Shown here in pieces: positions 28,661 through 62,963 of a stretch of 64,000 bases of DNA; the stretch's first letter is position 1; the number at the start of each line of letters is the position of its first letter. The position numbers and the translations under genes are program-made. A model generated the notes under the pieces. The model saw only the letters and a program-made list of their open reading frames with translations. It did not search any database and had not been told where the DNA came from. Source of the DNA: Kofleriaceae bacterium (GTDB lineage Bacteria > Myxococcota_A > Polyangia > Haliangiales > Haliangiaceae); the NCBI GenBank assembly GCA_024762925.1, contig JANTGM010000010.1:1-64000 (forward strand). Direction: 5' to 3'.

Positions 28661-28891
28661 CTACAATGCGGCAGTTTCCAAGCCAGCTTGCGATATTGCC
28701 CTTGCCCCAATAGTTGGGTTTTTGTTCTTGGCGAGGGAGCGACGTTGCAGCTCTATGGACGCTCGCAACTCCATAGTCGTTGGCGTGGACAGGCTGCGCC
28801 ACCAGCAAAAGCAACAAGAGGCCCACGAGCAGAATCCGCATGAGGCCTAATACGAGCGGGGGCTTCATCCGTTGCCTCGTATCTCGGCTTT

Positions 28892-28934
28892 CGTGCTCCA
28901 GAGCGAAGCATGTGGAGTGCTCCAGAGCGAAGCA
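28892..28934. repeat. 18-bp direct repeat (gtgctccagagcgaagca x2, spacer tgtgga) about 95-135 bp upstream of the MVP start
   Basis: Read directly: cgtgctccagagcgaagca tgtgga gtgctccagagcgaagca. Confidence 0.6.
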
Positions 28935-29025
28935 GCCAGTCATGCGCGTCTCGAACTTCCGCGCACCTAGCCCCGGCATACGACTTGCTCTCATGCACCG
29001 CGAACCCCAGAAAGGACGATTGCTT

Positions 29026-31041
29026 ATGGCCGAACGCGACATTCGAGAACGAGATATTTTGGTAGCCCCAAACGAATATGCTTACGTGCAAGACTTAACC
29101 AAAGGCGACATCGTGCTCTACGTCGGTCCCACCAAGGTTAGTCTCAGCAATACCGAGCGCATGATTGAGCATCGCGATGGCCGTTTTGTGCCTGTGCGAG
29201 GCGATGAGGCCGGTATGAGCGTGCACCGTTTTGTCGGCGCGACTTCATCGCAATACATTATTCTTCAGAACCCTCCCAAAGATCCGGAAACGCAGGCTAC
29301 CAAGGGCGCCAACTCAGCAGTGCTACTAGAAGTTGGTCGCACGCTTGTTGTGCCCGGTCCGGCGGAGTTTCCTTTGTGGCCAGGGCAGACCGCTCGTGTC
29401 GTGGACGGTCATCGCCTGCGCGAGAATGAGTATCTCGTATTGCGGGTCTATGATGATGACGGCCAGGGGTCGCCCATTGGCACCGAAAGCATTCTGCGAG
29501 GAAGCGATCAGAGTTTTTATCTGCCAACAACGGGGCTCGAAGTGGTGCCCAATCGGGATGGTAACTATGTGCGCACGGCTTGGCGCTTGGACCACAGTCG
29601 AGGACTGCACTTGCGGGTGACAGCCAGCTTCGAGACGGGGGAGGAGGACCTCTTGCCACCAGGGCGCTACCAGGCTGGCCAGGATGTCTTCTTGCGGGGA
29701 GGTGCTGGTTTCTTCTTTCCAAACAGCAGTATCCACGTCGTCGCAGAGGTCGAAGCGATTCCTTTGGCGGAGAAAGAGGGGATTTATGTGCGAGACCTTG
29801 AGAGCGGCGGGGTACGCACCGTGGTTGGTCCGCAGAGCTATCTAGTCGATCCGACAAAAGAAGAACTCGTAGGAAGACCTCTAAGTGACGAGGTTCGAGC
29901 GTCCTGGAGGATTTCCAAGTACAGCGCAAAGCGCGCTCCTGCGATCTACGTGCCTCCCAGCGAGGCTGTCTTGATTATCGCGCCCAGTCGGCGAGAACTC
30001 GTGATGGGGCCGCAAGTTCGGGTGCTCGATTTTGATGAGGAGCTTGAGGTTTTGCAGCTGAGCACCGGACGGCCAAAGAGCAACGCCAACCTACTCGATA
30101 CCTGCTTCCTGCAAGTGCAAGGCAACAAGGTCTCGGATCGCGTGCAGTTGCAGACCGCCGATCACGTTGATCTCATGGCGACGCTCTCGTATCGCGTCTC
30201 GTTTGTCGGAGACAACGAGAAGTGGTTTGCTGTGCGCAACTACGTGGAGCTCTTGTGCGATCATCTTGGCTCGATCATTCGATCGGCAGCGCGCGCAACC
30301 ACGATTCACGACTTTCATGGATCATCGGCTCAGGTGCTGCGCGACGCTATCTTAGGATGCCACGAAGATTCCGGTGCCCGGACTGGTCGTCACTTCGAAG
30401 AGAATGGGATGTGGGTCTACGATCTTGAGGTTCTCGATGTGAGCATTCAGGACACCGACGTTCTGGAGATGTTGCAAAGTTCGCAGCGGGCCGCGATAGC
30501 CAGTGCGATTCATCGCAGTAGTGAAGATCGACGACTTGGAGACGAGCAGCTCAAGGAGTCTGTCAATTTGCGAATCATGAAGAGCCAAATTGCGACCCTT
30601 CAACAAGCCGCTGAACACGAGGCGACAAGTCGCGGTGTCGAGCTAGCGCGCACTGGCACACGGCTCGAAATCGATCGCATGGACAGAGTTGGACGGGCAA
30701 AGAACGCGGCTGACGCAGCATCCATCACCAACACAGCCCAACTTGCGTTGCAAAGCGCCAAGGCCGAACTTGAGGCCCAAGCCCTCGCAGCAAACGCAGA
30801 CGCCTTTTGCCAACAGATGCAGAGCCTCCAACCGGAACTCATCGCAACCTTGAAGAGCTTGGGCAACAAGCAACTCGCCGGCGAGCTCACAAAGAACTTG
30901 GCACCACTCGCTATCCTAGGTGGCGACTCAGTTGCCGATGTTGCCTCGCGGCTCCTTGAGAGTCTGCCAATGACCGGCAGCGCCGGCGGAATTCGCGATC
31001 TCCTTGTGGCTCCGGCGTGCGCTGCCACCGAAGAGGACTAG
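29026..31041 (+). CDS. Major vault protein (MVP) homolog
   Basis: RBS AAAGGA lies 9 nt before the ATG at 29026. [34 protein letters not shown] matches human MVP [49 protein letters not shown]...[19 protein letters not shown] matches VLSLSAGRPKRPHARR...IETADHARLQLQLAYNWHF. The N-terminus has MVP-repeat-like beta modules. An SPFH-like shoulder and a C-terminal coiled cap-helix region follow. Confidence 0.85.
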   Translation: [671 protein letters not shown]

Positions 31042-31059: not shown

Positions 31060-31335
31060 TTCGGTCGTCTGAGTCCCGATCTTCAGCGCCCTGCTCGTGC
31101 GCGATTCATGAAGATAGAACGCGCTCACTGGTCTTCTCGCCCGCTGACTTCGCGATCACGAATCAATGTTCATGGATCGCGCACTCGTGTCGGGGCCAGG
31201 AGCATAGAACCCTCTCGCTCGCTTTCTTGCCCTCTGAACGCGCTGGCATGGCCAGCGCTCTTCGTTGCTCCACGCCTTTCTTACCCCGGTAAGGTCGTCG
31301 TTCGCGCCTTGCCAGAGAACAAGCTTCGCGCGAGG
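31060..31335. repeat. Composite intergenic repeat: 90-bp MITE (31096-31185, TIR cgtgcgcgattcatgaa / ttcatggatcgcgcactcg) followed by a family-2 hairpin element (31195-31335)
   Basis: The terminal inverted repeats were read directly. The body matches 13130-13270. It contains the hairpin ccttacc-ccg-ggtaagg. Confidence 0.8.
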
Positions 31336-31515
31336 AGATCTATGCTCCTGAAGTGCACACGCAGGCCGCAAGAGGTTGTGCTCTTGGCATCATGCCCTCA
31401 GGAATGTTGCGTTTTTCGGGCTTGGACGGACTGCGAACTTCTCCAGAGCCTCCAAATTCGCTCAAGAAATCGGGCAACAGTGCCGAATTCCCATACGGAC
31501 GAGATTGTTGCGAGC

Positions 31516-34219: not shown

Positions 34220-35509
34220 TCAGACATCATCTGAGGCCTCAATGCCGTAGGGCACGCCGCTTGGGCAGCCGTGCATAGCAAGGAGCTTTCCGTTTTCGTC
34301 AATGGACAAGAACCGGTGTGCTTCCGTGATCTCTGGCCATTGAGTGCCTCTTGCCTGCTTGAGGCGAACTGCTGCGCTTACGGGGTGGGATCGAGCCCTA
34401 TTTCTCTTTGCGATTTCTTCTGAGGGACAGTGAAATGCAGCGATCGTCACCAGAGCACCATAGTCAACCGCCATGGCGATGACAGCGCTGCGGAAGTCAG
34501 TTCTAAGTGACGTGGCGTCCCAGACGACTTTTCGCTTTGCGCGCAGATGCTCCCGTAGTTCCTCCTTCGCCATGCGCAGGACCTTAGAGTTATTCTGTTG
34601 GTCTTCACGTCGAGACAAGGATGCCCGGATATCGTCAAGAGACACGACCTTGTGGTCGCCAAGGTTCTTGCCAATCCAGGTCGTTTTTCCGCTGCCGCTG
34701 AGCCCAGTGGTCACAACAACTTCAGGAAATTCGTCACGGTAGCCATACGACTTCGCAATCGCTTCTTCTGGAGTCGCGATGACGCCATCTTCGCGGTCCG
34801 ACGTTGCTTTGGCGACCACGAGATCGATTGTTGCTCCCGAGTGTCCCGCCAGGGCCTCTCTGATCTCATCGTTCCACAAGTCGCGCTCTTGGGTGTGCCA
34901 TACGTCGTACTCCTCTGCGAACATCCGAAACATCTCGAGATGCTCTAGCTGAGTTTCCTTGTCGCGACATTCACGTCCTCGGATGTCGGCAACTTCCAAC
35001 CAATAGATGAGTTCGAGGTCCACCACACGACTCAGCCTTCTGTAGGCGCCTGGCGACTGATTGCGCAAGACGAGTTTCTTTAGAGCGTTGTGATAGCCCG
35101 TGAGTGCCATGACTGAGTTGAGCAATGGAAAGCGCATGGTACCTGCGAGTTGAAGAGCCAAGTACGAGCGACCTTGCAGTTCATGACGAGGGCAGACAAG
35201 CCGGATGCGACCATCGATTTCACGCTCTTTTGTGGTGGTTGGTTTGGCGATGTCATGGAACGCCGAGCCCATGACAAGGGCCGCTCGCCTTGCAGGTGAG
35301 ATACCGTTGAGATCCGCGTCCAGTAGTTTGTAGGTCTCATCCAAGACCATCTGCGTGTGGATAAGGACGTTGCCCTCTGCATGCCATTCTGGGTCTTGCG
35401 GCGTGCCTTCTAGCTCATGGAGCAAGGGCAGCCGGTCGCCTAGATCATCGATAATGTCACTCATCGATGGCGAGCCACCGCTCGCGATGTGATCAATGAT
35501 ATCGCTCAT
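34220..35509 (-). CDS. Bifunctional RNA/DNA end-healing enzyme: N-terminal HD 2',3'-phosphoesterase domain fused to a C-terminal P-loop 5'-OH polynucleotide kinase domain (HD-Pnk architecture)
   Basis: The HD domain EWHAEGNVLIHT...GSAFHDIAKP resembles the HD domain of CCA-adding enzymes. The Walker A is VVVTTGLSGSGKTTWIGKNL, with Walker B VVWDATS and lid residues typical of T4 Pnk/zeta-toxin-like kinases. Start/stop overlap (ATGA) with the upstream RNA ligase gene. Confidence 0.65.
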   Translation of the reverse strand: MSDIIDHIASGGSPSMSDIIDDLGDRLPLLHELEGTPQDPEWHAEGNVLIHTQMVLDETYKLLDADLNGISPARRAALVMGSAFHDIAKPTTTKEREIDGRIRLVCPRHELQGRSYLALQLAGTMRFPLLNSVMALTGYHNALKKLVLRNQSPGAYRRLSRVVDLELIYWLEVADIRGRECRDKETQLEHLEMFRMFAEEYDVWHTQERDLWNDEIREALAGHSGATIDLVVAKATSDREDGVIATPEEAIAKSYGYRDEFPEVVVTTGLSGSGKTTWIGKNLGDHKVVSLDDIRASLSRREDQQNNSKVLRMAKEELREHLRAKRKVVWDATSLRTDFRSAVIAMAVDYGALVTIAAFHCPSEEIAKRNRARSHPVSAAVRLKQARGTQWPEITEAHRFLSIDENGKLLAMHGCPSGVPYGIEASDDV

Positions 35510-36147
35510 TGCTCTTCTCCTTCTTGGGAAGCCAGGCGGTTTGGAACAACGGGCTTGTGCATCCAGTGCTCTTCACTTTGAATATGGTTTGTGCGGACCC
35601 ACTTGGCAACTGAATCACCAAAGTCTGCATACGCAAAACGACTCGCCAGGCGCACTACGTAGCCTTCGGTGACAGAGGTGTCGGGCGCCAACTCTCGCAA
35701 AGCGTGTTCGTCGTAGATGCCGTCGAAGAGCACTGGCACGTGAGCGAGCCCCAAGAGCGCCGCCCACTCAACTGTCTCATCCCAGCTCAAGCAATGGTTT
35801 TGCTCGTTCCAAACCGAAAACATGAGAAAGAAACTTGGAAGCGCTGCATAGGCAATGGAATGGAGGGCGTAGAGGTTCTCCCCACAGACACGCCAGCCCT
35901 CGGGGATTTGGTGCGCCATGCGTCCGTGCATCGCCTTCACCCAGTCTCGTGAAGGGTGATGGCGACCATCGATTGAGCGAGCGTGAAGACCGTCTCGGTA
36001 GAGGCTAGTGTTTTCGCCGTCCATCTTCTCGGTCACGATGACGCGTTGGCCCCGGAAGGGCAGTAGAGAATCGGCAAAGAGGTCGTCTGAGGTAGATCCG
36101 GGGGACCACGGCAAGTGCCGTGTCCGCGGGTATTTTACGCGGTGCAT
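35506..36147 (-). CDS. ATP-dependent RNA ligase (PF09414-like nucleotidyltransferase)
   Basis: N-terminal KYPRTRHLPWSPG followed by motif I VTEKMDGEN (KxDGxN adenylylation lysine). Later motifs ENLYALH (III-like), EGYVVR (IV) and KWVR (V-like) are present. 213 aa. Confidence 0.65.
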   Translation of the reverse strand: MHRVKYPRTRHLPWSPGSTSDDLFADSLLPFRGQRVIVTEKMDGENTSLYRDGLHARSIDGRHHPSRDWVKAMHGRMAHQIPEGWRVCGENLYALHSIAYAALPSFFLMFSVWNEQNHCLSWDETVEWAALLGLAHVPVLFDGIYDEHALRELAPDTSVTEGYVVRLASRFAYADFGDSVAKWVRTNHIQSEEHWMHKPVVPNRLASQEGEEQ

Positions 36148-40520: not shown

Positions 40521-41462
40521 CTAGGAAGAGGGAGGCTGGGCGTGTTGGGAACCGCGGTTTTTAAGTTGGTCGGTGACGAGATTTCTGAACCATTTGTGGG
40601 CGGGATCGTGGTGCATGCGTTGATGCCAGACGAGGCGGAGGGTGTAGCCTGGAGGAGCGGCTGGCATGTTCAGGAGTTCAAAGTCCACCAGAGTCGCCGC
40701 AACATCGGCGACACTCTTGGGGAGGGTGAGAACGTAGTCTGAATTTGCGACCAGAAAAGGTGCGGGCATGAAACTTGAGAGAGTGCGTGCGACGCGTCTG
40801 CTTAGGCCCTTTTCTGCGAGCATCGTGTCCACAACACCGCCAGAGCTTCCTTGGGGGGAGATGAGGAGGTGCTCCAAATCGGCAAATCGCTTGAGGGTCA
40901 TGCGCTTTTGCAGACACGGATGATCCTTTCGCACCATGCTCACGAATCGATCATGCATCACAGGCTTTGTATGCATATCTGGGGGCAGATCAGTCGTGAC
41001 GAGGAACGCCAGATCGAGACCGTCGCTGCGCAATTCTTCGATCGTGTTCTTGTAAGAGCTATTCGTAAGTACATCGACCAAGGGCGCCTGTGCCCGCAAC
41101 GCGCGATCGAGAGAGGGAAGGAGCACCCAGTCGAGGTAGTCGGCATAGGCGAGGTAAAAGGTACGTTCGAGCTTCTCTGGGCAAACGTCGTCCGGGGGCT
41201 GGATCACTCGCTCAAGGGCTGCCACTGCTTCGGCCACCAGAGGTGCTAAATAGGCACCCCGTGGGGTCTGGACCATCGTGCGTCCCGCCCGGACCAGCAA
41301 TTCGTCGCCTAGCAGAATGCGAAGGCGGGCGAGGGCATGGCTGGTCGCCGAAGCACTCATTCCAAGTAATTTAGCGGACTTGGCTACACTCTGGGTTTGC
41401 AAGAGAGGGTGGAGCATCACTAGCAAGTTACTGTCGATTCCCTGAAGCTGCATGGCCTGCAT
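40521..41462 (-). CDS. LysR-family transcriptional regulator
   Basis: The N-terminal HTH MSASATSHALARLRILLGDELLVRAG is followed by a C-terminal substrate-binding domain (about 300 aa). It is divergent from an NmrA-like gene, the classic LysR-target arrangement. Confidence 0.8.
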   Translation of the reverse strand: MQAMQLQGIDSNLLVMLHPLLQTQSVAKSAKLLGMSASATSHALARLRILLGDELLVRAGRTMVQTPRGAYLAPLVAEAVAALERVIQPPDDVCPEKLERTFYLAYADYLDWVLLPSLDRALRAQAPLVDVLTNSSYKNTIEELRSDGLDLAFLVTTDLPPDMHTKPVMHDRFVSMVRKDHPCLQKRMTLKRFADLEHLLISPQGSSGGVVDTMLAEKGLSRRVARTLSSFMPAPFLVANSDYVLTLPKSVADVAATLVDFELLNMPAAPPGYTLRLVWHQRMHHDPAHKWFRNLVTDQLKNRGSQHAQPPSS

Positions 41463-41544
41463 CTATATCAAGAGAATGCTGCACTTCCCACACTATTCGT
41501 GTGGGCCCATAGTGAGCTCACACCACAACCACGGAAAAGCAACT

Positions 41545-42402
41545 ATGAGTAACACACGCAACAAGATTCTCGTCGTCGGAGCCACCGGAACTGTCGGAGC
41601 CGAACTAGTAAAACTTCTCGACGGCTCAGGGGAAACCGTCAAGGCAGCTACGCGGGATCCAAGCCGCGATCTTGGGCCCAACGTCGAAGCGACTCGCTAC
41701 GATTTTGACGATCCCAGTACGTTTGATGGTGCCCTCAAAGACGTGAATCGCATCTTTTATCTCTCGCGCTCAGCCGATCCGATCGCAGCGGATGTGGCCC
41801 GCCCCCTCTTTGAAAAAGCCGCGGCTTTGGGCGTGAAACACATCGTCAATATGAGCGCTCTGGGGGTAGAGATGGATGCAAGCATCTCTCTGCGACAGGT
41901 GGAACTTCTCTTAGAAGAATCGGGCATTGACTATACAATCTTGCGGCCCAATTGGTTTATGCAAAACTTTGCGACTGGCTTTATGAACGACATGATTCGA
42001 GAGAAGAACGGTCTTTTTATCCCTGCGGGGGACGCCTCGGTGAGCTTTATTGATACTCGAGACATTGCAGCAGTGGCTGCCAAGGTTCTTTGCCAAGAGG
42101 GGCATGCAAACAAGGTCTACGCACTCACTGGCGGCGAGTCCTTTACCTATGAGGCAGCAATTGGCAAGGTTGCTGAGGCTGCCCAGCGTGGCGTCATCTA
42201 CGCTCCTATCGGCGAGGAGGATATGAAAGCGGCCCTACAAGACCAGGGACTGCCCGAGGCGCCGATTGCCTTTATGCTGGGGCTCTTTAGCCGCTTGCGA
42301 AGTGGGATAAACGCACCAGTAGAGGGCGATGTGGAGCAAATTTTGGGGCGCAAGCCTCTTTCGCTTGAAGACTTTGTGCAGGAGTTTGCTAGTTCATTCT
42401 AG
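41545..42402 (+). CDS. NmrA-like NAD(P)-binding reductase (SDR superfamily, atypical)
   Basis: Rossmann motif ILVVGATGTVGAELV. The length and C-terminal pattern fit NmrA/HSCARG-like proteins. ATG at 41545. Confidence 0.7.
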   Translation: MSNTRNKILVVGATGTVGAELVKLLDGSGETVKAATRDPSRDLGPNVEATRYDFDDPSTFDGALKDVNRIFYLSRSADPIAADVARPLFEKAAALGVKHIVNMSALGVEMDASISLRQVELLLEESGIDYTILRPNWFMQNFATGFMNDMIREKNGLFIPAGDASVSFIDTRDIAAVAAKVLCQEGHANKVYALTGGESFTYEAAIGKVAEAAQRGVIYAPIGEEDMKAALQDQGLPEAPIAFMLGLFSRLRSGINAPVEGDVEQILGRKPLSLEDFVQEFASSF

Positions 42403-42565
42403 TGCGCGATTCATGAATATAGAACGCGCTCACTCGTCTTCTCGCCCGCAGGTCAGCCCGTCTGCTTCGTTGTTCCTCGGTCGCTTGCCAGCAAACTCCC
42501 TCTTCCCGCCTCGCCAGCAAACGAGCTGACTTCGCGATCACGAATCAATGTCCATGGACCGCGCA
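42401..42565. repeat. Complete 165-bp MITE with 17-bp terminal inverted repeats (AGTGCGCGATTCATGAA ... TTCATGGACCGCGCACT)
   Basis: The TIRs were read directly. The internal sequence matches the half-elements at 13287-13345 and 31096-31185. It is inserted exactly between the nmrA-like stop and the next gene. Confidence 0.85.
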
Positions 42566-42582
42566 CTCGTGAGGAACCAATC

Positions 42583-42951: not shown

Positions 42952-43360
42952 GGTTGACGCTGCGCTGGGCTCGTTTCTTTTTTGCGCGCTGGGCTTGTGC
43001 GCTTTGTTGCGGCACGGACATCAAGCGCGGAACCCTCGCCTGGGCTGGCTGCTCAAGCGAGCAACCACTACTCAGCTTCGAAGCCAGCTGCCTTGTGCGC
43101 ACCATCGCAAAACGGCTTATTCTTCGATTCTCCACAGCGGCACAGGGCTGCCTTCTTGCCTGTCCATGCGACTCTCCCACTTGCCGCGACAATGCGGAGA
43201 TTTCCACTAACAAGGAGGGGGCCGTTTGGCGCACGCTTGATCTTGGTCCTAAAAAATCCTGAGATAGCGTAGGAGCTTACCAGGATCTGTGGGGAGGCCT
43301 GTCCAAACCATAGGAGGGAAAGGCGCTAATTCGTCGCCTGTGCGTGGTAAGGTCAATGGC

Positions 43361-44575
43361 ATGATCCGTCATGGGGTTCTTGCCTGCTTGCTCCTCACAG
43401 CATGCCAGTTCGACACTAGCACAACTGGAGCTGTGGATGATGACGCGGGCCAGCAACCTTTGGTCGATGCTTCCAATGCCGAGCTTGACGCTACGCCAAT
43501 CGATGGGGGAACTCCTGACGCAGTTGCACAAATCAACTGCATGGACTGGGCTCAGCAACCAACTATCGTAGACCCGTGCGTTGACTTTGAAATCGTGCAC
43601 GAACCTCTGATCCTTGATGAGAACGGTACATACAGCTACGACACAGACACGGGCATCCTAACAAGCCCGGCCCAAACCCCTGTGCCTCATACAAGCGTGA
43701 CACTTGGTGGGAATGCTGACGACCCGCGAGTTGTCGTGGCTGGGTTCATCAATGTGAAGGCCTTGACCACGTTGCGTGCTACAGGTGGTAGGCCGCTCAT
43801 CTTGGTTTCCTGGGAGAACCTCATGGTCGCTGGTGCCATTGACGTTGGCAGTGATGATACCGATGTCGGGGCTGGCGCAAACTCTGACAACTGCGACACG
43901 TCGGAAGCTGGAGACAGCGCTGAGAATGGTGGCGGCGGTGGCGGCGGCGGCGGCTTTGGTGGCGCTGGCGGGGCTGGCGCCGATGCGGAAGATGGCGACG
44001 GCTCTGACGGTGGCGCTGGCAGTGATGCGATCTCCGACCCTGGATTTCACGGCGGATGCCCTGGAGCCGATGGTGGGGATGGCCAATCCGAGATTGGTGG
44101 AGATGGCGGAAATAGCGGCGGCGCTGTCTACTTGCTGGCTCGGAAGTCTCTCTTGATTGGCGGAATCATCGCCTCGGGAGGCCAAGGTGGGTCTGGATCG
44201 CAGGGAGACCGCAGCGGTGGTGGCGGTGGCGGCAGCGGTGGCATGATCGGCCTTGAGGCTGGAACAATTCAACTGGGAAGCGGCGCTGTGATTGCTGCCA
44301 ATGGCGGCGGCGGCGGTGGTGGTACCAATCAAATGACTGCGGCTGCTGGCCAACACGGCCAGCTAGGTGCTGTCGCAGCTCTCGGTGGTGATGGCGAAGG
44401 CAACGCGCCCTCAGCAAACGGTGGCGACGGAGGATATGTCACTGTGATAGATGGCCAGGATGGTGTGACGAGCAACCGTGGTGGCGGTGGTGGCGGTGGT
44501 GGTGCGGGCCATATTACCTCCAGGGGGGCCTTATCGAACAATGGTGCAACGATTAGCCCTTCATTCACTGACTAG
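43361..44575 (+). CDS. Glycine-rich secreted lipoprotein (paralog of 407-1549)
   Basis: ATG at 43361 gives MIRHGVLACLLLTACQFD with a lipobox. Poly-Gly tracts are present (GGGGGGGGGFGGAGGAG, GGGGGGSGG, NGGGGGGGTNQ). See 407-1549 for the alignment blocks. Confidence 0.6.
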   Translation: MIRHGVLACLLLTACQFDTSTTGAVDDDAGQQPLVDASNAELDATPIDGGTPDAVAQINCMDWAQQPTIVDPCVDFEIVHEPLILDENGTYSYDTDTGILTSPAQTPVPHTSVTLGGNADDPRVVVAGFINVKALTTLRATGGRPLILVSWENLMVAGAIDVGSDDTDVGAGANSDNCDTSEAGDSAENGGGGGGGGGFGGAGGAGADAEDGDGSDGGAGSDAISDPGFHGGCPGADGGDGQSEIGGDGGNSGGAVYLLARKSLLIGGIIASGGQGGSGSQGDRSGGGGGGSGGMIGLEAGTIQLGSGAVIAANGGGGGGGTNQMTAAAGQHGQLGAVAALGGDGEGNAPSANGGDGGYVTVIDGQDGVTSNRGGGGGGGGAGHITSRGALSNNGATISPSFTD

Positions 44576-44584
44576 AGACGTGAG

Positions 44585-44705
44585 TTCGTTCACAGGCAAG
44601 GCGCGAACAACGAGCTTGCTGGGGCAAGAACGCAGAGCCGAAGGCGTCCAGAGGGCGAAAAGCCGAGCGAGCGCGAGCAAGAGTTTTGAATCCGACACTA
44701 GGCGC
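44585..44705. repeat. Interspersed intergenic repeat element (family 3, reverse orientation)
   Basis: ggcaaggcgcgaacaacgagcttgctggggcaag...gagccgaaggcgtccagagggcgaa...gagcgagcgcgagcaagagttttgaatccgacactag is the reverse complement of 19125-19260. Confidence 0.75.
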
Positions 44706-48475: not shown

Positions 48476-50350
48476 CTAGGCGGAGGTGCTCGTGAGAGCC
48501 AAGGCACAGTTGATAATACCAACATGGGAATAGGTTTGCGGAAAGTTGCCCCAAAGGGCCCCGCTCTCGGGATCAATGTCTTCGCTGAGCAAGCCAACAT
48601 GATTGGCGTGCTCGAGGATGGCCGTCACGACCTCACGGCTCGTTTGATGGTCGCCAAGGCATGCCAACGCTTCCGCGTACCAGAAACCACAAACGGTAAA
48701 CGTGGCATGAGTTGCTCCCAGGCCATCGTCATGGCGGTATCGAAAGAGAAGGTGCCCTCGAACGGATAGGGCGCACGCGAGATGCTCCACGTGCGAGCGT
48801 GCCCGAGAATCGTCGGGTGCGAGGAAGCCCGTGGTCACCATCATGAAGAGCGATGCATCTGCATAGTGACCCAATGTCGAATCTGCGAAGAATCCCTCCT
48901 CTGCACGCCAGCACTCCTCTTCGAGGATCGACCGAGCGGCTTCACGCAGGCGCAGCGCTCGCTCGGCGAGTTGCTCATCAGAAAAACACCCAGCGATCTT
49001 CATCGCGGCATTACACCCGTGCCAGTGCATGAGTAGAGAAAACGTGTGTAGCGCGGGCTCCTGGCGTTTTTCCCAGAGCCCCGCGTCAGGTGCTCGAAGG
49101 TTTGATTCGATCGCATCGAGAAGGGCATAGCTCAGGTCCCGCACAACGAGACTTGGACCGCTCTCGCCCGAAGTGCCAACGACCAACTCCGCTGCCGCCA
49201 GTAGCTCCCCGTAGATGTCATGCTGGTCTTGCACGTAGGCCTGGTTGCCGACCCGAACTGGTTGCTCGCCTTGATACCCACTGAGCTTGGGCAAGCAGCG
49301 TTCCTCAAGTTCGACTTCTCCGCCAATTCCGTAGAGGGGCTGCAGGCGCTCGAGGCCGCCGACAAACTCAACAAAGTCTCGCGCCGCATCCCGATGCCCA
49401 AGACGAGCAAGTGCTTCGACCGTGAAATAGCTGTCTCGCGGCCAGCAGAAGCGATAGTCCCAGTTGCGACCGGAACCTGGGTGCTCGGGAACACTTGTTG
49501 TCGTCGCTGCGGTGACTGCGCCGGTGTCTTCAAACTGATGAAGCTTGAGGGTTATCATGGAGCGCACGACTGCATCGCGAAACTCGGTCGGCAGTGACGC
49601 TTCGCGAATCCACTCTTGCCAGTGAGAGATTGTCTTAGCGATGCTTCGCTCGGCTGCGTCCACAGATGCTACGGAGGCAGGGGCGCTGCCCCAGGTCAAG
49701 ACCACATACAGCGGTTCGGCAAGCGTGAAGAACTGCTCCCCTTGAATGGCTACAATCTGCCCGCTTGCAGCGAGTTCGATGCCCTGCTCGTGACCTTGCC
49801 AAGACAATCCCCCAGCGACTGCTGTGGCTTGTAGCTGTTGCTCTCCATCATGAGATACGGGGCTACAGCAAATGCGAATCGATGTGTGGCCCTTCGTTGG
49901 CACGATTCGGCGAACGATTTGACGTGGCCTGTAGGTGTTTTCTTGTTCGAGGTATCTCGGTGCAAGGTCAGTGATCTCGAAAGCCGTGTCACGGTCCCCC
50001 TTGGAGCGACAAAGGAACTCGGTCCGCAAGACCGCGCTGTTCTCGACGTATTCTTGGTGCGTCTCAACCTCGGCATTTGCAACGTCAATGTGAAACGAAC
50101 CGCCATGCTCTTCATCGAGGAGGTGGCCAAATACAAAGTCGGAATCGAAGCGCGGCCAGCACAGCCATCGAACCCGAGCCTTGGCATCGATTAGGGCTTG
50201 AAACGAGCCGTTCCCAATCAGTGCGAGATCCACGAGCCAAGTATGGCACTGAGGGCAACTGTCAGGCGACTCCACCTCTGCTTGCGTGGGGGCAAACACG
50301 AATCGTAGGTTCGCTTTGGCTCCGCTCCTCGCCTTGTGGCTTCGCAACAA
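48476..50350 (-). CDS. Glycoside hydrolase family 15 protein (glucoamylase / trehalase-like)
   Basis: GH15 signature RNWDYRFCWPRDSYF. An N-terminal beta-sandwich and a C-terminal (alpha/alpha)6 domain with conserved Glu/Trp residues follow. 624 aa. Confidence 0.75.
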   Translation of the reverse strand: MLRSHKARSGAKANLRFVFAPTQAEVESPDSCPQCHTWLVDLALIGNGSFQALIDAKARVRWLCWPRFDSDFVFGHLLDEEHGGSFHIDVANAEVETHQEYVENSAVLRTEFLCRSKGDRDTAFEITDLAPRYLEQENTYRPRQIVRRIVPTKGHTSIRICCSPVSHDGEQQLQATAVAGGLSWQGHEQGIELAASGQIVAIQGEQFFTLAEPLYVVLTWGSAPASVASVDAAERSIAKTISHWQEWIREASLPTEFRDAVVRSMITLKLHQFEDTGAVTAATTTSVPEHPGSGRNWDYRFCWPRDSYFTVEALARLGHRDAARDFVEFVGGLERLQPLYGIGGEVELEERCLPKLSGYQGEQPVRVGNQAYVQDQHDIYGELLAAAELVVGTSGESGPSLVVRDLSYALLDAIESNLRAPDAGLWEKRQEPALHTFSLLMHWHGCNAAMKIAGCFSDEQLAERALRLREAARSILEEECWRAEEGFFADSTLGHYADASLFMMVTTGFLAPDDSRARSHVEHLACALSVRGHLLFRYRHDDGLGATHATFTVCGFWYAEALACLGDHQTSREVVTAILEHANHVGLLSEDIDPESGALWGNFPQTYSHVGIINCALALTSTSA

Positions 50351-50530
50351 CTCGCCTTGTGGCTTCGCAACAATATGCTAGGAAGGATGGGTTTCTCAGA
50401 TGTATCTAGCCCTCGTTCCTCGTCCCGGGTGTTGCAAGTGACGCAACATTGTTTCGTCGCGTTGCAACGTTTTCTGCTGGTGGGACATCCACCGACCTCA
50501 GACAAATACTTAGATCCACAGCCCAATTTT

Positions 50531-51670
50531 ATGAAGGGCAATTGGCTCATTTATTGCGACTGTGGTGGCCCAATGCGCTCATCAAGGACTCCAAATCTCA
50601 TCGTTGGTCTCGTCGCAGCAATCCTCGCAGTGAACGTTGTGATCTTTTGGTTGCTCATTAAGAAGGACAAAAAGAAGGATTCGAACAGGGATTCCTTTGC
50701 CCTCGCAACCCCCAAAGCAACTCAGGCTGGATCCGCCTTCCCACCACTGCAAGTGGAGGGAGATATCGGAGATGCGGAGACTCAGGTGGATGACGCGGAA
50801 GAGCTAGCCGCAGACCCGGGCGACGTTGACCCGGAGGAGAACAGCGCTGAGGAGAACAGCGCTGAGGAGAATGGCGCTGAGGAGAATGGCGCTGAGGAGA
50901 ATGGCGCTGAGGAGAATACCGCCGAGGTCGAGCCAGAGGACGACGATGCCCAGAGCGAGGTTACAGAGACCGCACCTGTGACACGGCGGAGAAGCTCTCA
51001 CACCGTGCCAAAACGCAAGCGGCGCAGTTCCTCCTCACGTGCCAGCGAAAAGAATAGCGAAAGGCAAGTGGTCCCACCAGTGCCGGTGCCAATGCCCAAG
51101 CCAGCCCCTGCAACAACATCTCTCGACGTCACCACCGTTCCTAGCGGAGCCACGATTTCCCTCGATGGAATCTTCATTGGGAAAACCCCAATCCGTGGTG
51201 CAAAGGTCGCCTTTGGTCGTCACACTGTTGCGGCAAGTCACGCGGGTTTTGAGCCTCAAGTGACGAAGTTCAATGCAACGCAAGGTGAGCGAGAGCGTGT
51301 GCAACTGCGTCTGGAAAAAGTCGAGTTGGTCGACCAACAGGTTGCCGTGAAACGCACGCCGACAATGCCAAAGGTGCAACGACGCCCAGCCACTCCTCGA
51401 GTTCTGGCCTCCGTCGAAGGCAGCGCCAGCCGCGGCCGATCAGCCATTCGCTCGACCTGCAACTCCTGCCATGCCGAGCGAGGTGCCTCAAGCGTGAGCA
51501 CCAAGCGATACACCCGCTCGCAATGGGATCGCTTTTTTGCAAAGGGGAAACACGATCGCTATGAGCGACTAGGTGGGCGCGTGAATGCCCGGCAGCTGTC
51601 TGATGTGAAGGCCTACGTCAAATCGAAATCCGCCGATGCCGCCCGTAACCAAGGCGCAGGGATTCGCTAG
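50531..51670 (+). CDS. Membrane-anchored PEGA-domain protein with an acidic (AEENx)6 tandem repeat and a C-terminal CxxCH heme-binding-like motif
   Basis: TM anchor LIVGLVAAILAVNVVIFWLLI. The repeat is EENSAEENSAEENGAEENGAEENGAEENTAE. The PEGA-like block is VTTVPSGATISLDGIFIGKTPI. CNSCHAERG is present near the C-terminus. The start (50531 or 50573) is uncertain. Confidence 0.5.
   Translation: MKGNWLIYCDCGGPMRSSRTPNLIVGLVAAILAVNVVIFWLLIKKDKKKDSNRDSFALATPKATQAGSAFPPLQVEGDIGDAETQVDDAEELAADPGDVDPEENSAEENSAEENGAEENGAEENGAEENTAEVEPEDDDAQSEVTETAPVTRRRSSHTVPKRKRRSSSSRASEKNSERQVVPPVPVPMPKPAPATTSLDVTTVPSGATISLDGIFIGKTPIRGAKVAFGRHTVAASHAGFEPQVTKFNATQGERERVQLRLEKVELVDQQVAVKRTPTMPKVQRRPATPRVLASVEGSASRGRSAIRSTCNSCHAERGASSVSTKRYTRSQWDRFFAKGKHDRYERLGGRVNARQLSDVKAYVKSKSADAARNQGAGIR
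50833..50925. repeat. 15-bp in-frame tandem repeat (gctgaggagaa[c/t][a/g]gc)x6
   Basis: Read directly inside CDS 50531-51670. Confidence 0.85.
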
Positions 51671-55455: not shown

Positions 55456-56331
55456 TTGGGCTTCACACTCACCAACCCTGTATTCTTGGCGGGAAAGTCA
55501 GCGGCTGCCTGCGCAATTGCCTTGCTCCTCGTCGAAGCGCTCGGTATTCCCGATCTTGTGACAGCGAGCTTTGTTGCTGTGTTGTGTTGCTCTCCTGGCG
55601 CCCTAATGGGGCTCCGAACCAGTGCTGACCAACTGGCAGGCAGTGTGCTCGGTGGAATTTTTGGCACGCTTGGGGCTATGCTCGAACTACCGCCGGCGCT
55701 CGGCGTCGGGCTTGCCGTTGGCCTCGCCATCTTGTGCACGCACCGAATTGGGTTTCACCGGGGAACGGTGGCCGCTGCTTTCACTGCACTCTTTCTGCAA
55801 TTGGTTTCCTTTGGGGAGCCTCTGCAGACCTTTGGGTATCGGCTTGAGGCCGTGGGCATTGCAGGGCTCTCCGCCTTTGTCGTCAACGTTGCAGCCTCCT
55901 CGCTCTTTTACGTCCCTCTCTTCAGTAAGCGCCTCCGTCGGCTCACAGAGCACATCGACGACTTGCTTCGCAAGGCAGCCGGAGAAGGCCCTTCGGGCTT
56001 GGTCGTGGCCTTTCCGCACATCACCGAGCTGAGTGCTCAGGTTTCGCAAGCCGCCAAAGAGGTGCATTGGCGCGGTAACAAGACGGCGAAAGCGGAGCTC
56101 GAAAAAATCGCAAACCGCGTCGCTTGGCTCCAAGACATTGTGCATCTCTCGGTGAATCTGGAATACAGTCTGCCAGGCGACAGCCCGGAACTAAGAGAAT
56201 TTCTGGCATGGCTGCCCGAGCAAGAGGGCCAAGCACCAGAGCTGCCCGAGCCCGCCCAGCAAACCCGCACAAGAATCCTGGAACTGCTTGAGGCGGGGCG
56301 AGATGGTGACGTCCGCGACCTTATGGCCTAG
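55456..56331 (+). CDS. Membrane protein, aromatic-acid-exporter/FUSC-like
   Basis: Four to five TM helices at the N-terminus, with a C-terminal cytoplasmic coiled region. It lies 7 nt after the secreted paralog, so an operon is likely. Confidence 0.4.
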   Translation: MGFTLTNPVFLAGKSAAACAIALLLVEALGIPDLVTASFVAVLCCSPGALMGLRTSADQLAGSVLGGIFGTLGAMLELPPALGVGLAVGLAILCTHRIGFHRGTVAAAFTALFLQLVSFGEPLQTFGYRLEAVGIAGLSAFVVNVAASSLFYVPLFSKRLRRLTEHIDDLLRKAAGEGPSGLVVAFPHITELSAQVSQAAKEVHWRGNKTAKAELEKIANRVAWLQDIVHLSVNLEYSLPGDSPELREFLAWLPEQEGQAPELPEPAQQTRTRILELLEAGRDGDVRDLMA

Positions 56332-56399
56332 CTCGTAGTGCCAGACTATCGATCAGGTTCGCGAGGCTGAGCAACCCCGCTCGGCTGATTCTTCGGCCG

Positions 56400-56786
56400 T
56401 TAGCCTCGGCGAACGGCAACGCGGCCGCTTCTTAGTGCGAACGCGAGGGCCATTAACAGTAACCCAAATCCCAAACCGCTACCTCCACCCGTACTGCAAC
56501 CTTTAGAAGACTTCTTCTTGCCGCTATCATCGGCGGCGGCGTTGGGGGCTTCAGGGTTTTTCTTATAGTAGCAGCTCCTGCAACTCGTGCGCGATTCATG
56601 AATATAGAACGCGTGCAGGCGTGTGAGGACCATGCCGCCCGTGCCGCTCAAGACGTCTCCGCCGAGAGTAGCTAGGTCCTGGTAGTCCAACGTCGGTCCG
56701 GGGCTGAGAGTGTGCCCAAGGATAGCTTCCGTTACCCAGCCAGGATAGAAATCGGCGCCCCAACTCGCGAAATTGTCATAGGGCAT
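56400..56786 (-). pseudogene. Remnant of a MYXO-CTERM-anchored protein gene disrupted by a repeat-element fragment (56570-56625)
   Basis: The C-terminus GCSTGGGSGLGFGLLLMALAFALRSGRVAVRRG fits the MYXO-CTERM sorting signal (Cys, Gly-rich stretch, hydrophobic helix, basic tail). There is no signal peptide. The middle (HAFYIHESRTS) is encoded by the MITE left-end sequence cgtgcgcgattcatgaatatagaacgcg. Confidence 0.5.
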
Positions 56787-56839
56787 GCCTCGCTCCGGCC
56801 CTGCAAAACCGAAGCGAGGCTCACTAAAGAGCGTTGGTG

Positions 56840-58339
56840 CTAGCAGACCGACAGGGTGCGGTCTTTGTGCACGAGCGGCGCTGTGACTGTGAATTTGGAA
56901 CCGCCGTCCTCCGTTGCCTCGTAGCGAATCGTTCCACCGTGTTCGTGGGCAATCTCAGAAGAAATCGCAAGGCCCAGCCCCGATGCGGTGTGGTCGTTCT
57001 TTGTCGACATGAAAGGCTCGAAGATTTCGTTGACCAGGTCTTCGGCAACACCAGTGCCATGGTCGAGGACGGAGAAGGTAACGCGGTCACGATCCACTGT
57101 AGCTCGAACCGATACCACAGCACCAAGTGGCGAGGCCTCGGCGGCGTTCTTGAGAAGATTTACGAGAACCTGCAGAAAGAGGGCCTCGTTGACATCGACC
57201 TCCGCATCGGGCATTTCCCCAATGTCGAGCGAGATAACCGAACGAAGATTGCCTCGGCACAGTGCTACCGCGCGATCGACCAAGTGTCCCACACCGCATG
57301 GACGATGAACTGCATCGCCAGATCTCACAAACGTGCGCATTGCGCGAAACAGCGCGACCATGCGCGATGAGACTTCTACGGCATTCTCGAGGGTGTCAAC
57401 CACCTCCGGATCTTCTTCTTTGCTCGCAGTATCTCTTACGAAGTCTTCTAGTTCGAAGAGTGCGCCTTGAAGACCTTGTACCATGGAAGCGAGCTCGTGC
57501 ACGAGGGCAACGGTCATGGTTCCAAGTGTGGCGCGCCTGGTGACAGCGCTGAGTTTCTCGCGTGCCTGCGGACTATCGCTTGCCGACTTGGCCAACCGGG
57601 TTGCTGCATCTTCGGAGCTCCAATGTAGTGCCCGGGTAGCAAGATAGTCGACGATATCGCGGGCGACACTTCCCATGCCTCGGGCAAGAAGCCGAATTGT
57701 TCCATCATAGCTAATCGGCAGGTCGACGTTCCAGCGACCAGGCTCGGTGGAGGCTGAGGGTAGAGTGCCCGCAAGAACACGGTCCTCTTGCTCCTCTTGC
57801 ATTTGCACAGCGCACCGCTCAACACCCTCAAGCGAGAGCGCGCGACGCACGAGCACTTTTGCTAGCGCCGTGGGGCTTTCGATTGCTGCAAACTCGCTGT
57901 CCACACCAGCGAGTGCCAGAGCGTCTGTCACCGAGCCGCTAAGCGAGCGTTCCCGGTTCCTGTGCTCAAAGGCGCGCTTGAGCGTAACCTCCACTTCGTC
58001 GTGCCAGGGCTTTCCCACCTTGTAGGGCGCGTTCTCTTGCATGGTGGCTTTGTGCGCATCGTCATCGACGAAGCCAGTAAGAAGAATTCGTACGAGCTCT
58101 GAGTCGCGCCTCGATGCTTCCTCCAGCACTTGCACACCGCTCATGCCAGGCATTCGCTGATCGGAGATGATGGCGTCATAGCGCTCGGAATCCAAATGCC
58201 CTAGCGCTTCGACGCCCGTTGCCACCGCTGTGACATCGTAGTCGAGTTCAAGTTCATCGAGAAGTGCATCGCGAACGTCGTCGTCGTCGTCGACAATAAG
58301 GATGCGGTAGCGAGAGTCGGTTACTACTTGTTCACTCAT
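56840..58339 (-). CDS. Hybrid response-regulator/histidine kinase (REC-HisKA-HATPase)
   Basis: The RBS AGGAACCAAAAG precedes the ATG at 58339. The receiver is ILIVDDDDDVRDAL...ISDQRMPGMSG. The H-box is VALVHELASMVQGL. The ATPase motifs are LLKNAAEAS, DHGTGV and GLGLAI. Confidence 0.8.
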   Translation of the reverse strand: MSEQVVTDSRYRILIVDDDDDVRDALLDELELDYDVTAVATGVEALGHLDSERYDAIISDQRMPGMSGVQVLEEASRRDSELVRILLTGFVDDDAHKATMQENAPYKVGKPWHDEVEVTLKRAFEHRNRERSLSGSVTDALALAGVDSEFAAIESPTALAKVLVRRALSLEGVERCAVQMQEEQEDRVLAGTLPSASTEPGRWNVDLPISYDGTIRLLARGMGSVARDIVDYLATRALHWSSEDAATRLAKSASDSPQAREKLSAVTRRATLGTMTVALVHELASMVQGLQGALFELEDFVRDTASKEEDPEVVDTLENAVEVSSRMVALFRAMRTFVRSGDAVHRPCGVGHLVDRAVALCRGNLRSVISLDIGEMPDAEVDVNEALFLQVLVNLLKNAAEASPLGAVVSVRATVDRDRVTFSVLDHGTGVAEDLVNEIFEPFMSTKNDHTASGLGLAISSEIAHEHGGTIRYEATEDGGSKFTVTAPLVHKDRTLSVC

Positions 58340-61250: not shown

Positions 61251-61254
61251 TGTG

Positions 61255-61450
61255 GGATCCAGAGGCATAGAACGCCCTGGCTCGGTTCTTCGCCCTTTGA
61301 ACGCCTTCGGCTCTTGTGTCGGATTCAAGAATCTTGCTCGCGTTCGCCCGGTTCTTCGCGCTCTGGACGCCTTCGGCTCTGCGTTGCTCAGCGCCTCCCT
61401 TGCCCCAGCAAGCTCGTTGTTCGCGCCTTGCCAGTGAACGAACTCCCGTC
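61255..61450. repeat. Interspersed intergenic repeat element (two tandem family-3 units)
   Basis: ggctcggttcttcgccctttgaacgccttcggctc appears twice (61283, 61343), followed by ttgctcagcgcctcccttgccccagcaagctcgttgttcgcgcc. The hairpin is cttgc-ccca-gcaag. Confidence 0.8.
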
Positions 61451-62122: not shown

Positions 62123-62164
62123 GGGCCCTGGGGGGGCTTGGGTTTCTAGCAACAGGAGAATCAG

Positions 62165-62599: not shown

Positions 62600-62602
62600 G
62601 CC

Positions 62603-62947: not shown

Positions 62948-62963
62948 GACAGCCTGAAACTTC

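Follow-up and report, generated by a model that had tools for sequence, protein, structure and literature searches.

A family of non-coding elements with inverted ends adjoining CTAG in a Kofleriaceae genome

MITEs derived from IS630/Tc1-mariner elements are represented in bacteria by RUP of Streptococcus pneumoniae and Correia/NEMIS of Neisseria. IS630 itself inserts at the TA of 5'-CTAG-3' and duplicates this TA, according to Tenzen & Ohtsubo 1991 as cited in PMC2170065. In the IS481 family, a stop codon lies within the target sequence, and IS481 and ISLxc2 end in TGT and duplicate NCTAGN (PMC3053399, PMC2516522). MITEPsy1 of Pseudomonas syringae, which is derived from IS5, is 100 nt long, with 18-nt inverted repeats and a 4-nt duplication of CTAG or YTAA (PMC3189936). 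In pneumococcus, different small repeat families (SPRITE, BOX and RUP) are bunched and inserted into each other, some of them with terminator-like hairpins; clustering and mutual insertion are likewise found among MITEs of other bacteria (PMC10969869).

Here, we examined a stretch of 64 kb of Kofleriaceae DNA (henceforth the window), for which the initial annotation had proposed, from similarity judged by eye, a family of intergenic repeats dispersed over seven loci. All of these loci proved to be real. A profile search delimited a non-coding repeat with inverted ends in 12 segments at seven loci, which together occupy 1,336 nt, i.e. 2.1% of the window. The 16-mer GTGCGCGATTCATGAA, with up to three mismatches allowed, occurred seven times while 0.92 occurrences were expected, and none of 100 shuffled sequences reached seven. 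The similarity also stood under pairwise BLAST between loci (E 1e-7 to 1e-38), and an nhmmer family profile matched within the window at the seven loci only (E 3e-49 to 8e-7). The elements fall into three related subfamilies (T1, T2 and T3), alignable over their entire length and having a body common to all, with 79-93% overall identity within subfamilies. The full-length unit is about 163-177 bp long (complete cores of 163, 166 and 172 bp, a deleted form of 86 bp), which lies within the size of MITEs (less than about 500 bp).

Complete copies of each subfamily were found. D (42399-42569, plus strand) is a complete T1, consisting of CTAG (42399-42402), the core TGCGCG...CGCGCA (42403-42565) and CTCG. 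G2 (61313-61486, plus strand) is a complete T2, in which CTTG is followed by the core TGTCGG...CCGACA (61317-61482) and CTAG (61483-61486), and C2 (31184-31359, plus strand) is a complete T3 with its core at 31188-31359. The other segments represent decay products typical of MITEs, namely internal deletion (C1), truncations (B1, B2, E, F and G1) and a chimera (A), together with clusters at B, C and G. C1 (31094-31187, plus strand), the neighbour of C2 in locus C (31094-31359), is an internally deleted T1 whose 86-nt core (31098-31183) keeps both ends and has CTCG on either side as a direct repeat. Locus B (19030-19269) is composed of three pieces. B0 (19030-19050, plus strand), recognized partly by reading of the sequence, is what remains of a T1-type right end, with terminal CTAG (19047-19050); B1 (19051-19154, minus strand) is a T1 cut short after CTTGCCCCA, with the left end and hairpin 1 preserved; B2 (19151-19269, plus strand) is a T2 without the right inverted repeat. 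The CTAG at 19151-19154 is common to B1 and B2. E (44572-44701, minus strand) is another T2 without the right inverted repeat, with CTAG on both sides. G1 (61247-61312, plus strand), which precedes G2 in locus G (61247-61486), is the left half of a T2/T3-like variant. F (56584-56622, plus strand) is a left-end fragment of T1, with CTCG followed by 26-35 nt. In the chimera A (13125-13338, plus strand), the left end and body of T3 (13129 to about 13270) are joined to the right end of T1 (13273-13334), and the flanks are CGAG and CTAG.

Imperfect terminal inverted repeats, 17-29 nt long and tipped by TG...CA, are specific to each subfamily and were found in every full-length copy. The three end types are TGTCGGATTCAA..., TGCGCGATTCATGAA... 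and TGTCGGGGCCAGGAGCATAGA..., with the tips TGTCGG...ACA in T2 and T3 and TGCGCG...GCA in T1. As for the 17-bp repeats initially reported for D, the left one (AGTGCGCGATTCATGAA, 42401-42417) is as written, while the right one (42551-42567) reads TCCATGGACCGCGCACT instead of TTCATGG..., one base having been mis-transcribed. The two are complementary at 14 of 17 positions, and the repeat reaches about 25-40 nt when small gaps are allowed. In C2, the inverted repeat spans about 29 nt, including a perfect 12-nt stretch (CAGGAGCATAGA / TCTATGCTCCTG). Terminal inverted repeats of this kind are characteristic of MITEs. Furthermore, the ends co-vary between subfamilies: 81.6% of cells were paired, compared to 26-39% with the partners slid, and 9 pairs had changed on both sides where shuffles gave 4.8, with 3 in 500 of the shuffles attaining as many. 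Pairing in the terminal helix amounted to 75% across copies, and both partners had changed in five of its pairs.

Nine ends adjoin CTAG and five adjoin CTCG. A check for target-site duplications, which the initial annotation had called for, gave a mixed outcome: the flanks are equal at E (CTAG/CTAG), at C1 (CTCG/CTCG) and at G when taken as a composite (CTAG/CTAG), but unequal at D (CTAG/CTCG), A (CGAG/CTAG) and C2 (CTCG/CGCA). CTAG is moreover palindromic, so that its duplication is not formally separable from an extension of the inverted repeat; native CTAG at empty sites of relatives (see below) favours CTAG as the target over CTAG as part of the repeat. The nine junctions are compatible with C-TA-[G...C]-TA-G, i.e. 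with TA duplication, and the five other ends have TC in place of TA. The duplication would be either TA (2 bp) or the whole CTAG (4 bp). At three loci of the window and at a further copy, H, the upstream gene has its TAG stop codon within the adjoining CTAG. In the window, these are the CTAG preceding D (gene 41452-42402), the CTAG at 44572-44575 beside E (gene 43289-44575) and the CTAG at 61247-61250 beside G1 (sigma-54 activator gene, 59874-61250). It is because of the preference for CTAG that the copies adjoin TAG stop codons.

In relatives of about 80% nucleotide identity, bare CTAG without an element was present at two orthologous sites, after the activator gene and after fliG, and such filled and empty sites are what mobility of a MITE would leave. 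The activator gene of five relatives ends with ...GGAAACTAG and then C or T; in the window, ...GGAAACTAG is followed by TGTGGG...GACACTAG and then AGCC. Similarly, fliG ends in relatives with ...GGTCTAG followed by TGCCAC, and in the window's organism with ...GGTCTAG followed by TGTCGGATTC, the beginning of copy H. These are not clean before/after pairs, as the right flank at G has itself diverged, or is missing about 55 nt, in comparison with the relative L107, and the sequence at H covers no more than the initial 30 nt of the element. An empty site for E was sought in L108, the closest retrievable relative, where synteny ends beyond the symporter gene. No copy was detected in about 91 kb of non-redundant DNA from the five relatives, in which about 10 would be expected at the density of the window. 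The filled and empty sites show gain in this lineage and not ongoing movement, the comparison being one between species at about 80% nucleotide identity.

Copies are not confined to this region, in line with the dispersal of MITEs already indicated by 12 segments at seven loci in 64 kb. H, the eighth copy, lies just beyond the right edge of the window and is identical to B2 across the 30 comparable nt. P0001, a spurious NCBI protein found via an ORF of the G locus, is the translation of an element copy from another locus. In the short-read assembly of SRR19843167, seven of the eight contig ends examined fall 27-43 nt inside an element, and independent short-read contigs of the same organism terminate within elements B, D, E, G and H. 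A scan of a genome collection with a degenerate 16-mer of the T1 end, too short a pattern, gave at least 93 loci, all of them chance matches in unrelated phyla, none of which extends past the 16-mer. Two JGI metagenome scans (T1 27-mer; T2/T3 28-mer) gave no matches, nor did two distant BLAST searches of a plasmid collection with T1 and T2. An exhaustive HMMER search with P0001 returned the protein itself and one weak match, P0242 (E=2.3e-5), which was matched in six short stretches, read as low-complexity, and was rejected as a relative.

As in MITEs in general, the elements are devoid of coding capacity. The ORFs in them are short and vary from copy to copy, and none is conserved, since the subfamilies differ by a 10-nt indel that disrupts the reading frames. 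Two 56-aa ORFs spanning T2 and T3, which start at a GTG within the left end and close with the terminal TAG, were considered as a possible coding sequence and rejected, as their frames differ across this indel and only the nucleotide-conserved part is shared. The peptides containing HESRT, to which attention had been drawn earlier, do correspond to translated T1 sequence. When 50 large ORFs of the window were scanned with Pfam, no transposase domain was found, in agreement with the initial annotation.

We consider it likely that these elements constitute a lineage-specific MITE superfamily of non-coding 163-172 bp units, mobilised in trans by an unseen, CTAG-targeting DDE transposase; no transposase with matching ends was found, so that mobilisation in trans is an inference. 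The family is new, of an ordinary kind (MITE), and calls for no new mechanism. A DDE-type transposase from another part of the genome would bind and cut the subfamily-specific TG...CA ends, and integration would take place at CTAG or its variant CTCG, present on both sides afterwards. Because most insertions into coding regions would be lethal, surviving copies would be found at intergenic CTAG, very often in the form of a C-TAG stop codon, and the duplication would regenerate the stop codon of the upstream gene. Copies would accumulate beside and within each other and would then degenerate as they suffer internal deletions, are truncated or recombine with copies of other subfamilies, occasionally in association with the deletion of neighbouring genes.

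Candidate parents of such a superfamily are IS630, IS481 and IS5, all of which use CTAG according to the literature. As for IS630, its MITE derivatives are alike in size (about 100-200 bp), in terminal inverted repeats and lack of an ORF, and in their intergenic, clustered and nested occurrence. TA duplication in CTAG would produce precisely such C-TA-[G...C]-TA-G junctions as the elements show, whereas CTCG...CTCG around C1 is not a TA duplication. Sequence similarity to RUP, Correia/NEMIS or IS630 was not found, and neither an IS630-family transposase nor a matching full-length IS was seen; a link to IS630 or to a named IS630-derived MITE family is not established. As for the IS481 family (IS481, IS1002 and ISLxc2), a CTAG-centred target with a stop codon in it is shared, as are the tips 5'-TGT...ACA-3' in T2 and T3, while T1 reads TGC...GCA. 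However, the 6-bp NCTAGN duplication is absent here, since CTAG directly adjoins TG and the outer bases are not duplicated. The flanking 6-mers differ (ACTAGT and ACTAGA at G, TCTAGT and ACTCGT at D), and the outer T/A, if counted as N, are invariant and inverted, and so part of the element. We know of no described MITE derivative of the IS481 family with these ends. As for IS5, MITEPsy1 has the same CTAG target and the same possible duplication length of 4 nt, but its ends (GGAAGG..., typical of IS5) differ from TGT or TGC, and there is no sequence similarity. Of the features of IS5-derived elements, i.e. GGAAGG or GAGG ends and 4-bp duplication of CTAG or YTAR (reference ends from PMC3189936), only the duplication is compatible. 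The SPRITE/BOX/RUP clusters differ in sequence and host phylum, and the clustered units of the window are subfamilies of one superfamily.

Besides the missing transposase, the palindromic nature of CTAG, the unequal flanks and the imperfect empty sites, two observations count against the MITE reading: the folding of whole elements is unremarkable (see below), and the interior is 68-80% identical between subfamilies compared to 52-65% for the ends, which is not the usual MITE pattern. A modular variant of the superfamily, which we regard as unlikely, would have the body (hairpin 1 and T-rich tail, with CTTCGTTGCTC and GTCGTTGTTCGCGC motifs) selected as a portable gene-end module, e.g. a terminator or insulator, and the ends switching transposase specificities. 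Such modules would land on C-TAG stop codons, regenerating the stop and any overlapping start, and might derive from an undescribed IS lineage with TG...CA tips and 4-bp CTAG duplication. If this were true, they could settle even between translationally coupled operon genes such as fliG and fliH. Copy H is located between these two genes, which overlap in relatives.

The conserved body also bears on the possibility that the elements are structured ncRNA genes or cis-regulatory RNA modules (terminators, stabilisers or sRNAs), kept for function and spread by duplication rather than selfishly. Across subfamilies, the pairing of the ends and two internal hairpins have been maintained through compensatory changes, and at A, C, D, G and H the element has the same direction as the upstream gene. 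In C2 (GCGCTGGC-ATG-GCCAGCGC, 31240-31258) and in B1, hairpin 1 is stable, with -16.7 and -17.4 kcal/mol (z -2.6 and -3.2), and is followed by a T-rich tail flagged by a terminator scan. However, it is absent from D and has only 3 bp left in T2, hairpin 2 (-2 to -5 kcal/mol) is no better than shuffles, and the T tails are poor (e.g. UCUUCGUUGCU). The motifs cttgc-ccca-gcaag and ccttacc-ccg-ggtaagg, singled out initially as hairpin bodies, are both present (CTTGCCCCAGCAAG at 19237 and 61399 and reverse-complemented at 44615; CTTACCCCGGTAAG at 31281), but their hairpins are weak (-2 to -5 kcal/mol), stability of about -17 kcal/mol being confined to hairpin 1 of C2 and B1. The DNA folds of whole elements are unremarkable (z-scores +0.16, -2.1 and -2.6), which rules out a long perfect hairpin. 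Over the window, Rfam gave no match at gathering score and, at a permissive threshold (E<=1), one chance-level match (E=0.87) on three loci; no tRNA was found and no sigma-70 promoters were predicted in the elements. In addition, B2 and B0 run antisense to the genes beside them, every second copy is truncated or chimeric, and the lack of copies in relatives at about 80% identity means that no conserved host function is tied to these sites. We therefore hold a functional RNA to be improbable; a host-level role, e.g. that of weak terminator hairpins, would be secondary.

Improbable to the same degree is that the copies are immobile relics, i.e. solo ends or internal scraps of a degenerated full-length IS, or segmental duplications, with no current or recent miniature transposition. 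Fragments are indeed numerous (B0, B1, B2, E, F and G1), and an identity of only 79-93% within subfamilies means that no very recent burst is evident in the window. However, three complete units of nearly equal length (163, 166 and 172 bp), with both ends and a homologous body, are not expected from scraps of a 1-kb IS. The absence of the element from orthologous CTAG sites of relatives, the identity of H with B2 over the 30 comparable nt and the collapse of assembly graphs at the elements likewise speak against relics.

The label REP-like, used in the initial annotation, was not supported. REP, BIME and REPIN sequences are short palindromes located outside genes, which form inverted pairs and owe their spread to a RAYT (Y1, IS200-like) transposase. 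They resemble the present elements in being abundant intergenic hairpin repeats, often located after genes and causing spurious ORF calls and assembly breaks. The elements of the window are also clustered, small palindromes occur inside their left arms (TTCATGAA in T1, GATTCAAGAATC in T2), and 8 of 11 segments lie on the plus strand, which is the strand with positive GC skew. Nevertheless, the unit differs from the 20-40-nt imperfect palindromes with a GT[AG]G head, single or in inverted doublets, of which REPs consist: cores of 163-172 bp bear terminal inverted repeats and a conserved, non-palindromic body of 100 nt, and no conserved GTAG or GTGG head is present. The ends adjoin CTAG that pre-exists at empty sites, as is typical of DDE cut-and-paste, and neither a Y1 transposase domain nor a RAYT was found in the window, which together make a REP origin quite improbable. 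In IS200/IS605 elements, the ends are not inverted repeats and the target motif flanks one end only. Single-strand miniature elements of this type (PATEs), inserting 3' of a tetranucleotide without duplication, would fit the fixed tetranucleotide, the subterminal hairpins and the bias of 8 of 11 segments to the positive-GC-skew strand, but the elements have genuine terminal inverted repeats (17-29 nt, tipped by TG...CA) and CTAG at both ends, which renders this type extremely improbable. Integron attC sites, considered as the elements follow stop codons, were rejected, since there is no R''/R' core motif, the orientation of the genes is mixed and an integrase was not found.

The elements have practical consequences for annotation and assembly. 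They yield spurious ORFs, one of which (P0001) has already been deposited as a protein, and because of them the short-read assemblies of this organism fall into pieces of 2-12 kb; a family consensus would permit masking and copy counting in these genomes. They also mark sites of genome change in a little-studied group, the flagellated marine Myxococcota. Two such sites had been pointed out in the initial annotation. Upstream of flgB, as claimed there, elements are present; they fill the space between the sigma-54 activator gene and flgB. The other site is the disrupted MYXO-CTERM gene, where the statement that the elements are always intergenic, valid for the other loci, fails for F. The ORF at 56400-56786 (minus strand, 128 aa) is, on sequence grounds, the remnant of a 512-aa DUF2330/MYXO-CTERM gene; in it, residues 311-343 and 459-512 of the orthologue flank the T1 fragment F, which is placed exactly at the junction of the internal 115-codon deletion.

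The complete element of the initial annotation, here D, was recovered at 42399-42569 with one base of its right repeat mis-read. The left repeat (42401-42417) is AGTGCGCGATTCATGAA and the right repeat (42551-42567) reads TCCATGGACCGCGCACT; they are complementary at 14 of 17 positions, and the inverted repeat extends to ~25-40 nt once small gaps are permitted. A repeat finder grouped D with the loci at 13.1, 19.1, 31.1, 44.6, 56.6 and 61.3 kb. With up to three mismatches, the left-end 16-mer occurred seven times in the window against 0.92 expected (0/100 shuffles reached seven), sensitive BLAST gave E values of 1e-7 to 1e-38 between loci, and an nhmmer profile of aligned family copies had no match in the window other than the seven loci (E 3e-49 to 8e-7). 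The claim of a repeat family at seven loci (A to G), made from similarity judged by eye, thus withstood proper alignment. Together, family segments cover 1,336 nt (2.1%) of the window.

Alignment of ten segments (alignment A2) yielded one superfamily with three subfamilies. T1 is represented by the complete D (core, i.e. the TG...CA unit without flanking tetranucleotide, 42403-42565), by C1 (31098-31183), an 86-nt internal deletion derivative, by B1 on the minus strand and by F, a left-end fragment of 26-35 nt. T2 comprises the complete G2 (61317-61482) together with B2 and E, both without a right end, and T3 the complete C2 (31188-31359). In the chimeric A, a T1 right end is joined to the left end and body of T3; G1 represents the left half of an intermediate type, and B0 is a right-end scrap. 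The tips of all are TG(T/C)...(A/G)CA. Overall identity is 79-93% inside subfamilies; across them, the ends share only 52-65% and the interior 68-80%, while left and right ends match each other in each subfamily. When the terminal helix and two internal hairpins were counted on the alignment, 81.6% of cells were paired, against 26-39% with partners slid by 1-3 columns, and both members of a pair had changed in nine cases, compared with 4.8 in shuffles (3/500 got that far). Judged against these controls, the pairing excess and two-sided changes show a maintained symmetry, under a constraint that may act on the DNA or RNA level. Whole-element DNA folding was unremarkable (z-scores +0.16, -2.1, -2.6).

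Directly outside the core, the tetranucleotide was CTAG at nine ends, CTCG at five, and CGAG, CTTG and CGCA at one end each. CTCG reads in the same direction whether it stands at a left or a right end, and it borders C1 on each side. CTAG itself is no rare word in the window (121 occurrences, only mildly depleted); its association is with element ends. At D (42400-42402), E (44573-44575) and G (61248-61250), the TAG stop of the upstream gene lies inside CTAG.

The host is a marine member of the Myxococcota, with the best named homologues in Haliangium (~62% amino-acid identity) and the closest contigs in Tara and other marine runs. Syntenic loci were fetched from relatives for comparison of filled and empty sites. 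The sigma-54 activator gene of five relatives closes with ...CACGG(A/C)AACTAG, and unrelated sequence follows; at the same site, the window reads ...GGAAACTAG and then directly TGTGGG... (G1, G2), ending in ...GACACTAG followed by AGCC. A second site is that of H, an eighth copy ~1.8 kb past the right window edge, on a short-read contig of the same organism (L096) that reaches 1.8 kb beyond this edge. There (L096:4332-4361), a T2 left end directly follows the fliG stop (GGTCTAG, then TGTCGGATTC); it is identical to B2 over its first 30 nt, after which the contig stops. Relatives carry GGTCTAG followed by TGCCACAC, and since their fliH GTG start overlaps the fliG stop, H sits between two translationally coupled flagellar genes. 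As relatives show CTAG without the element at both sites, this comparison makes CTAG ancestral and the element an addition, with neither pair perfectly clean: the right flank of G is also altered relative to L107 (a relative's contig), and one end only is visible at H. Sensitive BLAST and the profile detected no copy in ~91 kb of non-redundant DNA from relatives, where ~10 would be expected at window density, and metagenome scans and plasmid searches found none.

Within the host genome, the copies are not confined to this region. In run SRR19843167, whose short-read assembly carries the same organism's genes, contigs with the window's genes begin or end 27-43 nt inside B2, D, E (twice), G2 and H. 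De Bruijn assemblers break contigs in this way at multi-copy repeats, and this is the behaviour expected of one. By coordinate arithmetic, contig SRR19843167_10358 ends near 31066, ~28 nt before the start of C1; at 31060-31093, the repeated segment may stretch leftwards beyond what is recognisable as a T1 end, or a different repeat may adjoin it. Furthermore, a 110-aa NCBI protein (P0001) is a translated T1-plus-G1-type composite present at none of the window's loci, direct proof of the spurious gene calls that had been predicted. An exhaustive search with it found no further relatives, which agrees with a narrow host range.

At F, a disrupted MYXO-CTERM gene had been proposed (56400-56786). 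A T1 fragment (translated FYIHESRT...) does lie within this ORF, which is, however, not an intact gene but the remnant of a DUF2330 protein: what is left corresponds to residues 311-343 and 459-512 in the relatives' 512-aa protein, with the fragment in place of the 115 intervening residues and the first ~300 residues missing. Compared with a relative (window 56331-56840 vs L098:2143-6955), ~4 kb are missing between an ArAE_1 gene and a response-regulator/histidine-kinase gene, namely three small genes, a Peptidase_M64 gene and most of the DUF2330 gene; four neighbouring genes of relatives are absent here. The G elements stand between the activator and flgB, where L098- and L105-type relatives carry a 265-274-aa gene of unassigned function. 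This gene is absent from the window and L107, and only its last ~90 nt still align (61251-61574 vs L098:11378-12125). As L107 lacks both gene and elements, the loss is not attributable to the elements. A sigma-54-type -24/-12 motif, TGGATCGACTATTGC (61698-61712), is intact and is conserved in L107. It follows the sigma-54 activator gene (59874-61250) and lies 212 nt beyond G2 and ~20 nt upstream of flgB (61730-62122). Window 59874-64000 and L098:10001-21377 together display a full flagellar cluster (flgB, flgC, fliE, fliF, fliG, fliH, fliI, fliJ, flgD, flgE), unusual in Myxococcota, which are known for gliding rather than swimming.

The best reading of the family is a MITE superfamily that a DDE transposase moves in trans, because its units are small, with inverted-repeat ends and TG...CA tips and without coding capacity; because a fixed palindromic tetranucleotide stands on both sides and is already present at empty sites; and because of lineage restriction, clustering, internal deletion derivatives and chimeras. 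No conserved ORF was found in the elements (a 10-nt indel puts T2 and T3 in different frames), and no tRNAs. The 50 large ORFs of the window held no transposase domain, so non-autonomy holds within it; the partner transposase would reside elsewhere. Three IS families are documented as CTAG users. For IS630, duplication of TA within CTAG is cited in PMC2170065, and the parent may have used this mode. Members of the IS481 family carry TGT ends and duplicate 6 bp, NCTAGN (PMC3053399, PMC2516522); the 6-bp duplication does not fit here, as CTAG directly abuts TG. IS5-derived MITEPsy1 duplicates 4 bp, CTAG or YTAA (PMC3189936), whereas our elements lack IS5-type GGAAGG ends. A 4-bp CTAG/CTCG duplication is also possible, and mildly favoured because CTCG...CTCG borders C1. 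Target duplication would restore the stop codon, and the bias of surviving copies towards stop codons is accounted for by a CTAG target together with purifying selection on insertions into CTAGs of coding sequence.

In favour of a functional RNA or terminator module are some covariation, a single good hairpin and a tendency of elements to share the direction of the upstream gene. However, the hairpins vary among copies: hairpin 1 is strong in two copies only, C2 (-16.7 kcal/mol) and B1 (-17.4 kcal/mol), with a weaker form in A, a minimal one in T2 and none left in D. The CTTGC-CCCA-GCAAG and CTTAC-CCCG-GTAAG hairpins showed no gain over shuffles. Rfam support is lacking, with no match at gathering score and a single chance-level match (E=0.87) for three loci at E<=1, and the module is missing in relatives. 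Immobile relics of a full-length IS would not be expected to include three complete units of equal length, and IS200/IS605-type miniature elements are disfavoured by true inverted repeats and by a motif found at both ends. REP/REPIN elements do not fit, their unit structure being mismatched. The initial observation and, essentially, its interpretation are borne out: the family is new and lineage-restricted, and the kind of element is well known. Unusual features, which merit a note without calling for a new mechanism, are an interior better conserved than the ends, ends that co-vary in three subfamilies, and placement at stop codons, the fliG/fliH copy among them.

Several other features were observed. 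Within a PEGA-domain ORF (50336-51670), a 15-nt tandem repeat of ~8 units (50812-50931) encodes AEEN(S/G), and short-read contig L112 also breaks there. Near the left edge are ~60-nt repeats (57-272, spacing roughly 35-115 nt) and seven copies of the 9-nt tandem GGTCGTGTC (295-366); GGC/GGT-rich repeats are common to two glycine-rich ORFs (197-1549 and 43289-44575), the flagged repeat regions being 57-366, 1106-1449 and 43910-44500. A long imperfect 9/12/21-nt tandem array (7218-7589; GCAGCAGC..., CTTCGCCAGC...) falls where ORFs 6980-7801 (+) and 6996-7682 (-) overlap, and its product is probably a low-complexity, Ala-rich protein. A PolX-type polymerase gene lies at 20824-23058, and adjoining radical SAM, Memo-like and AMMECR1 genes (23231-25770) form what we take to be the conserved AmmeMemoRadiSam triad. 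At 34220-36147, an RNA ligase gene (PF09414) adjoins an AAA_33 kinase-like gene, and the two could be an RNA-repair pair. Finally, a 753-aa ORF (28780-31041) carries the MVP_shoulder (E=4.9e-26), Vault_3 and Vault_4 domains of the eukaryotic major vault protein and is, by its domains, a predicted bacterial vault-protein homologue.
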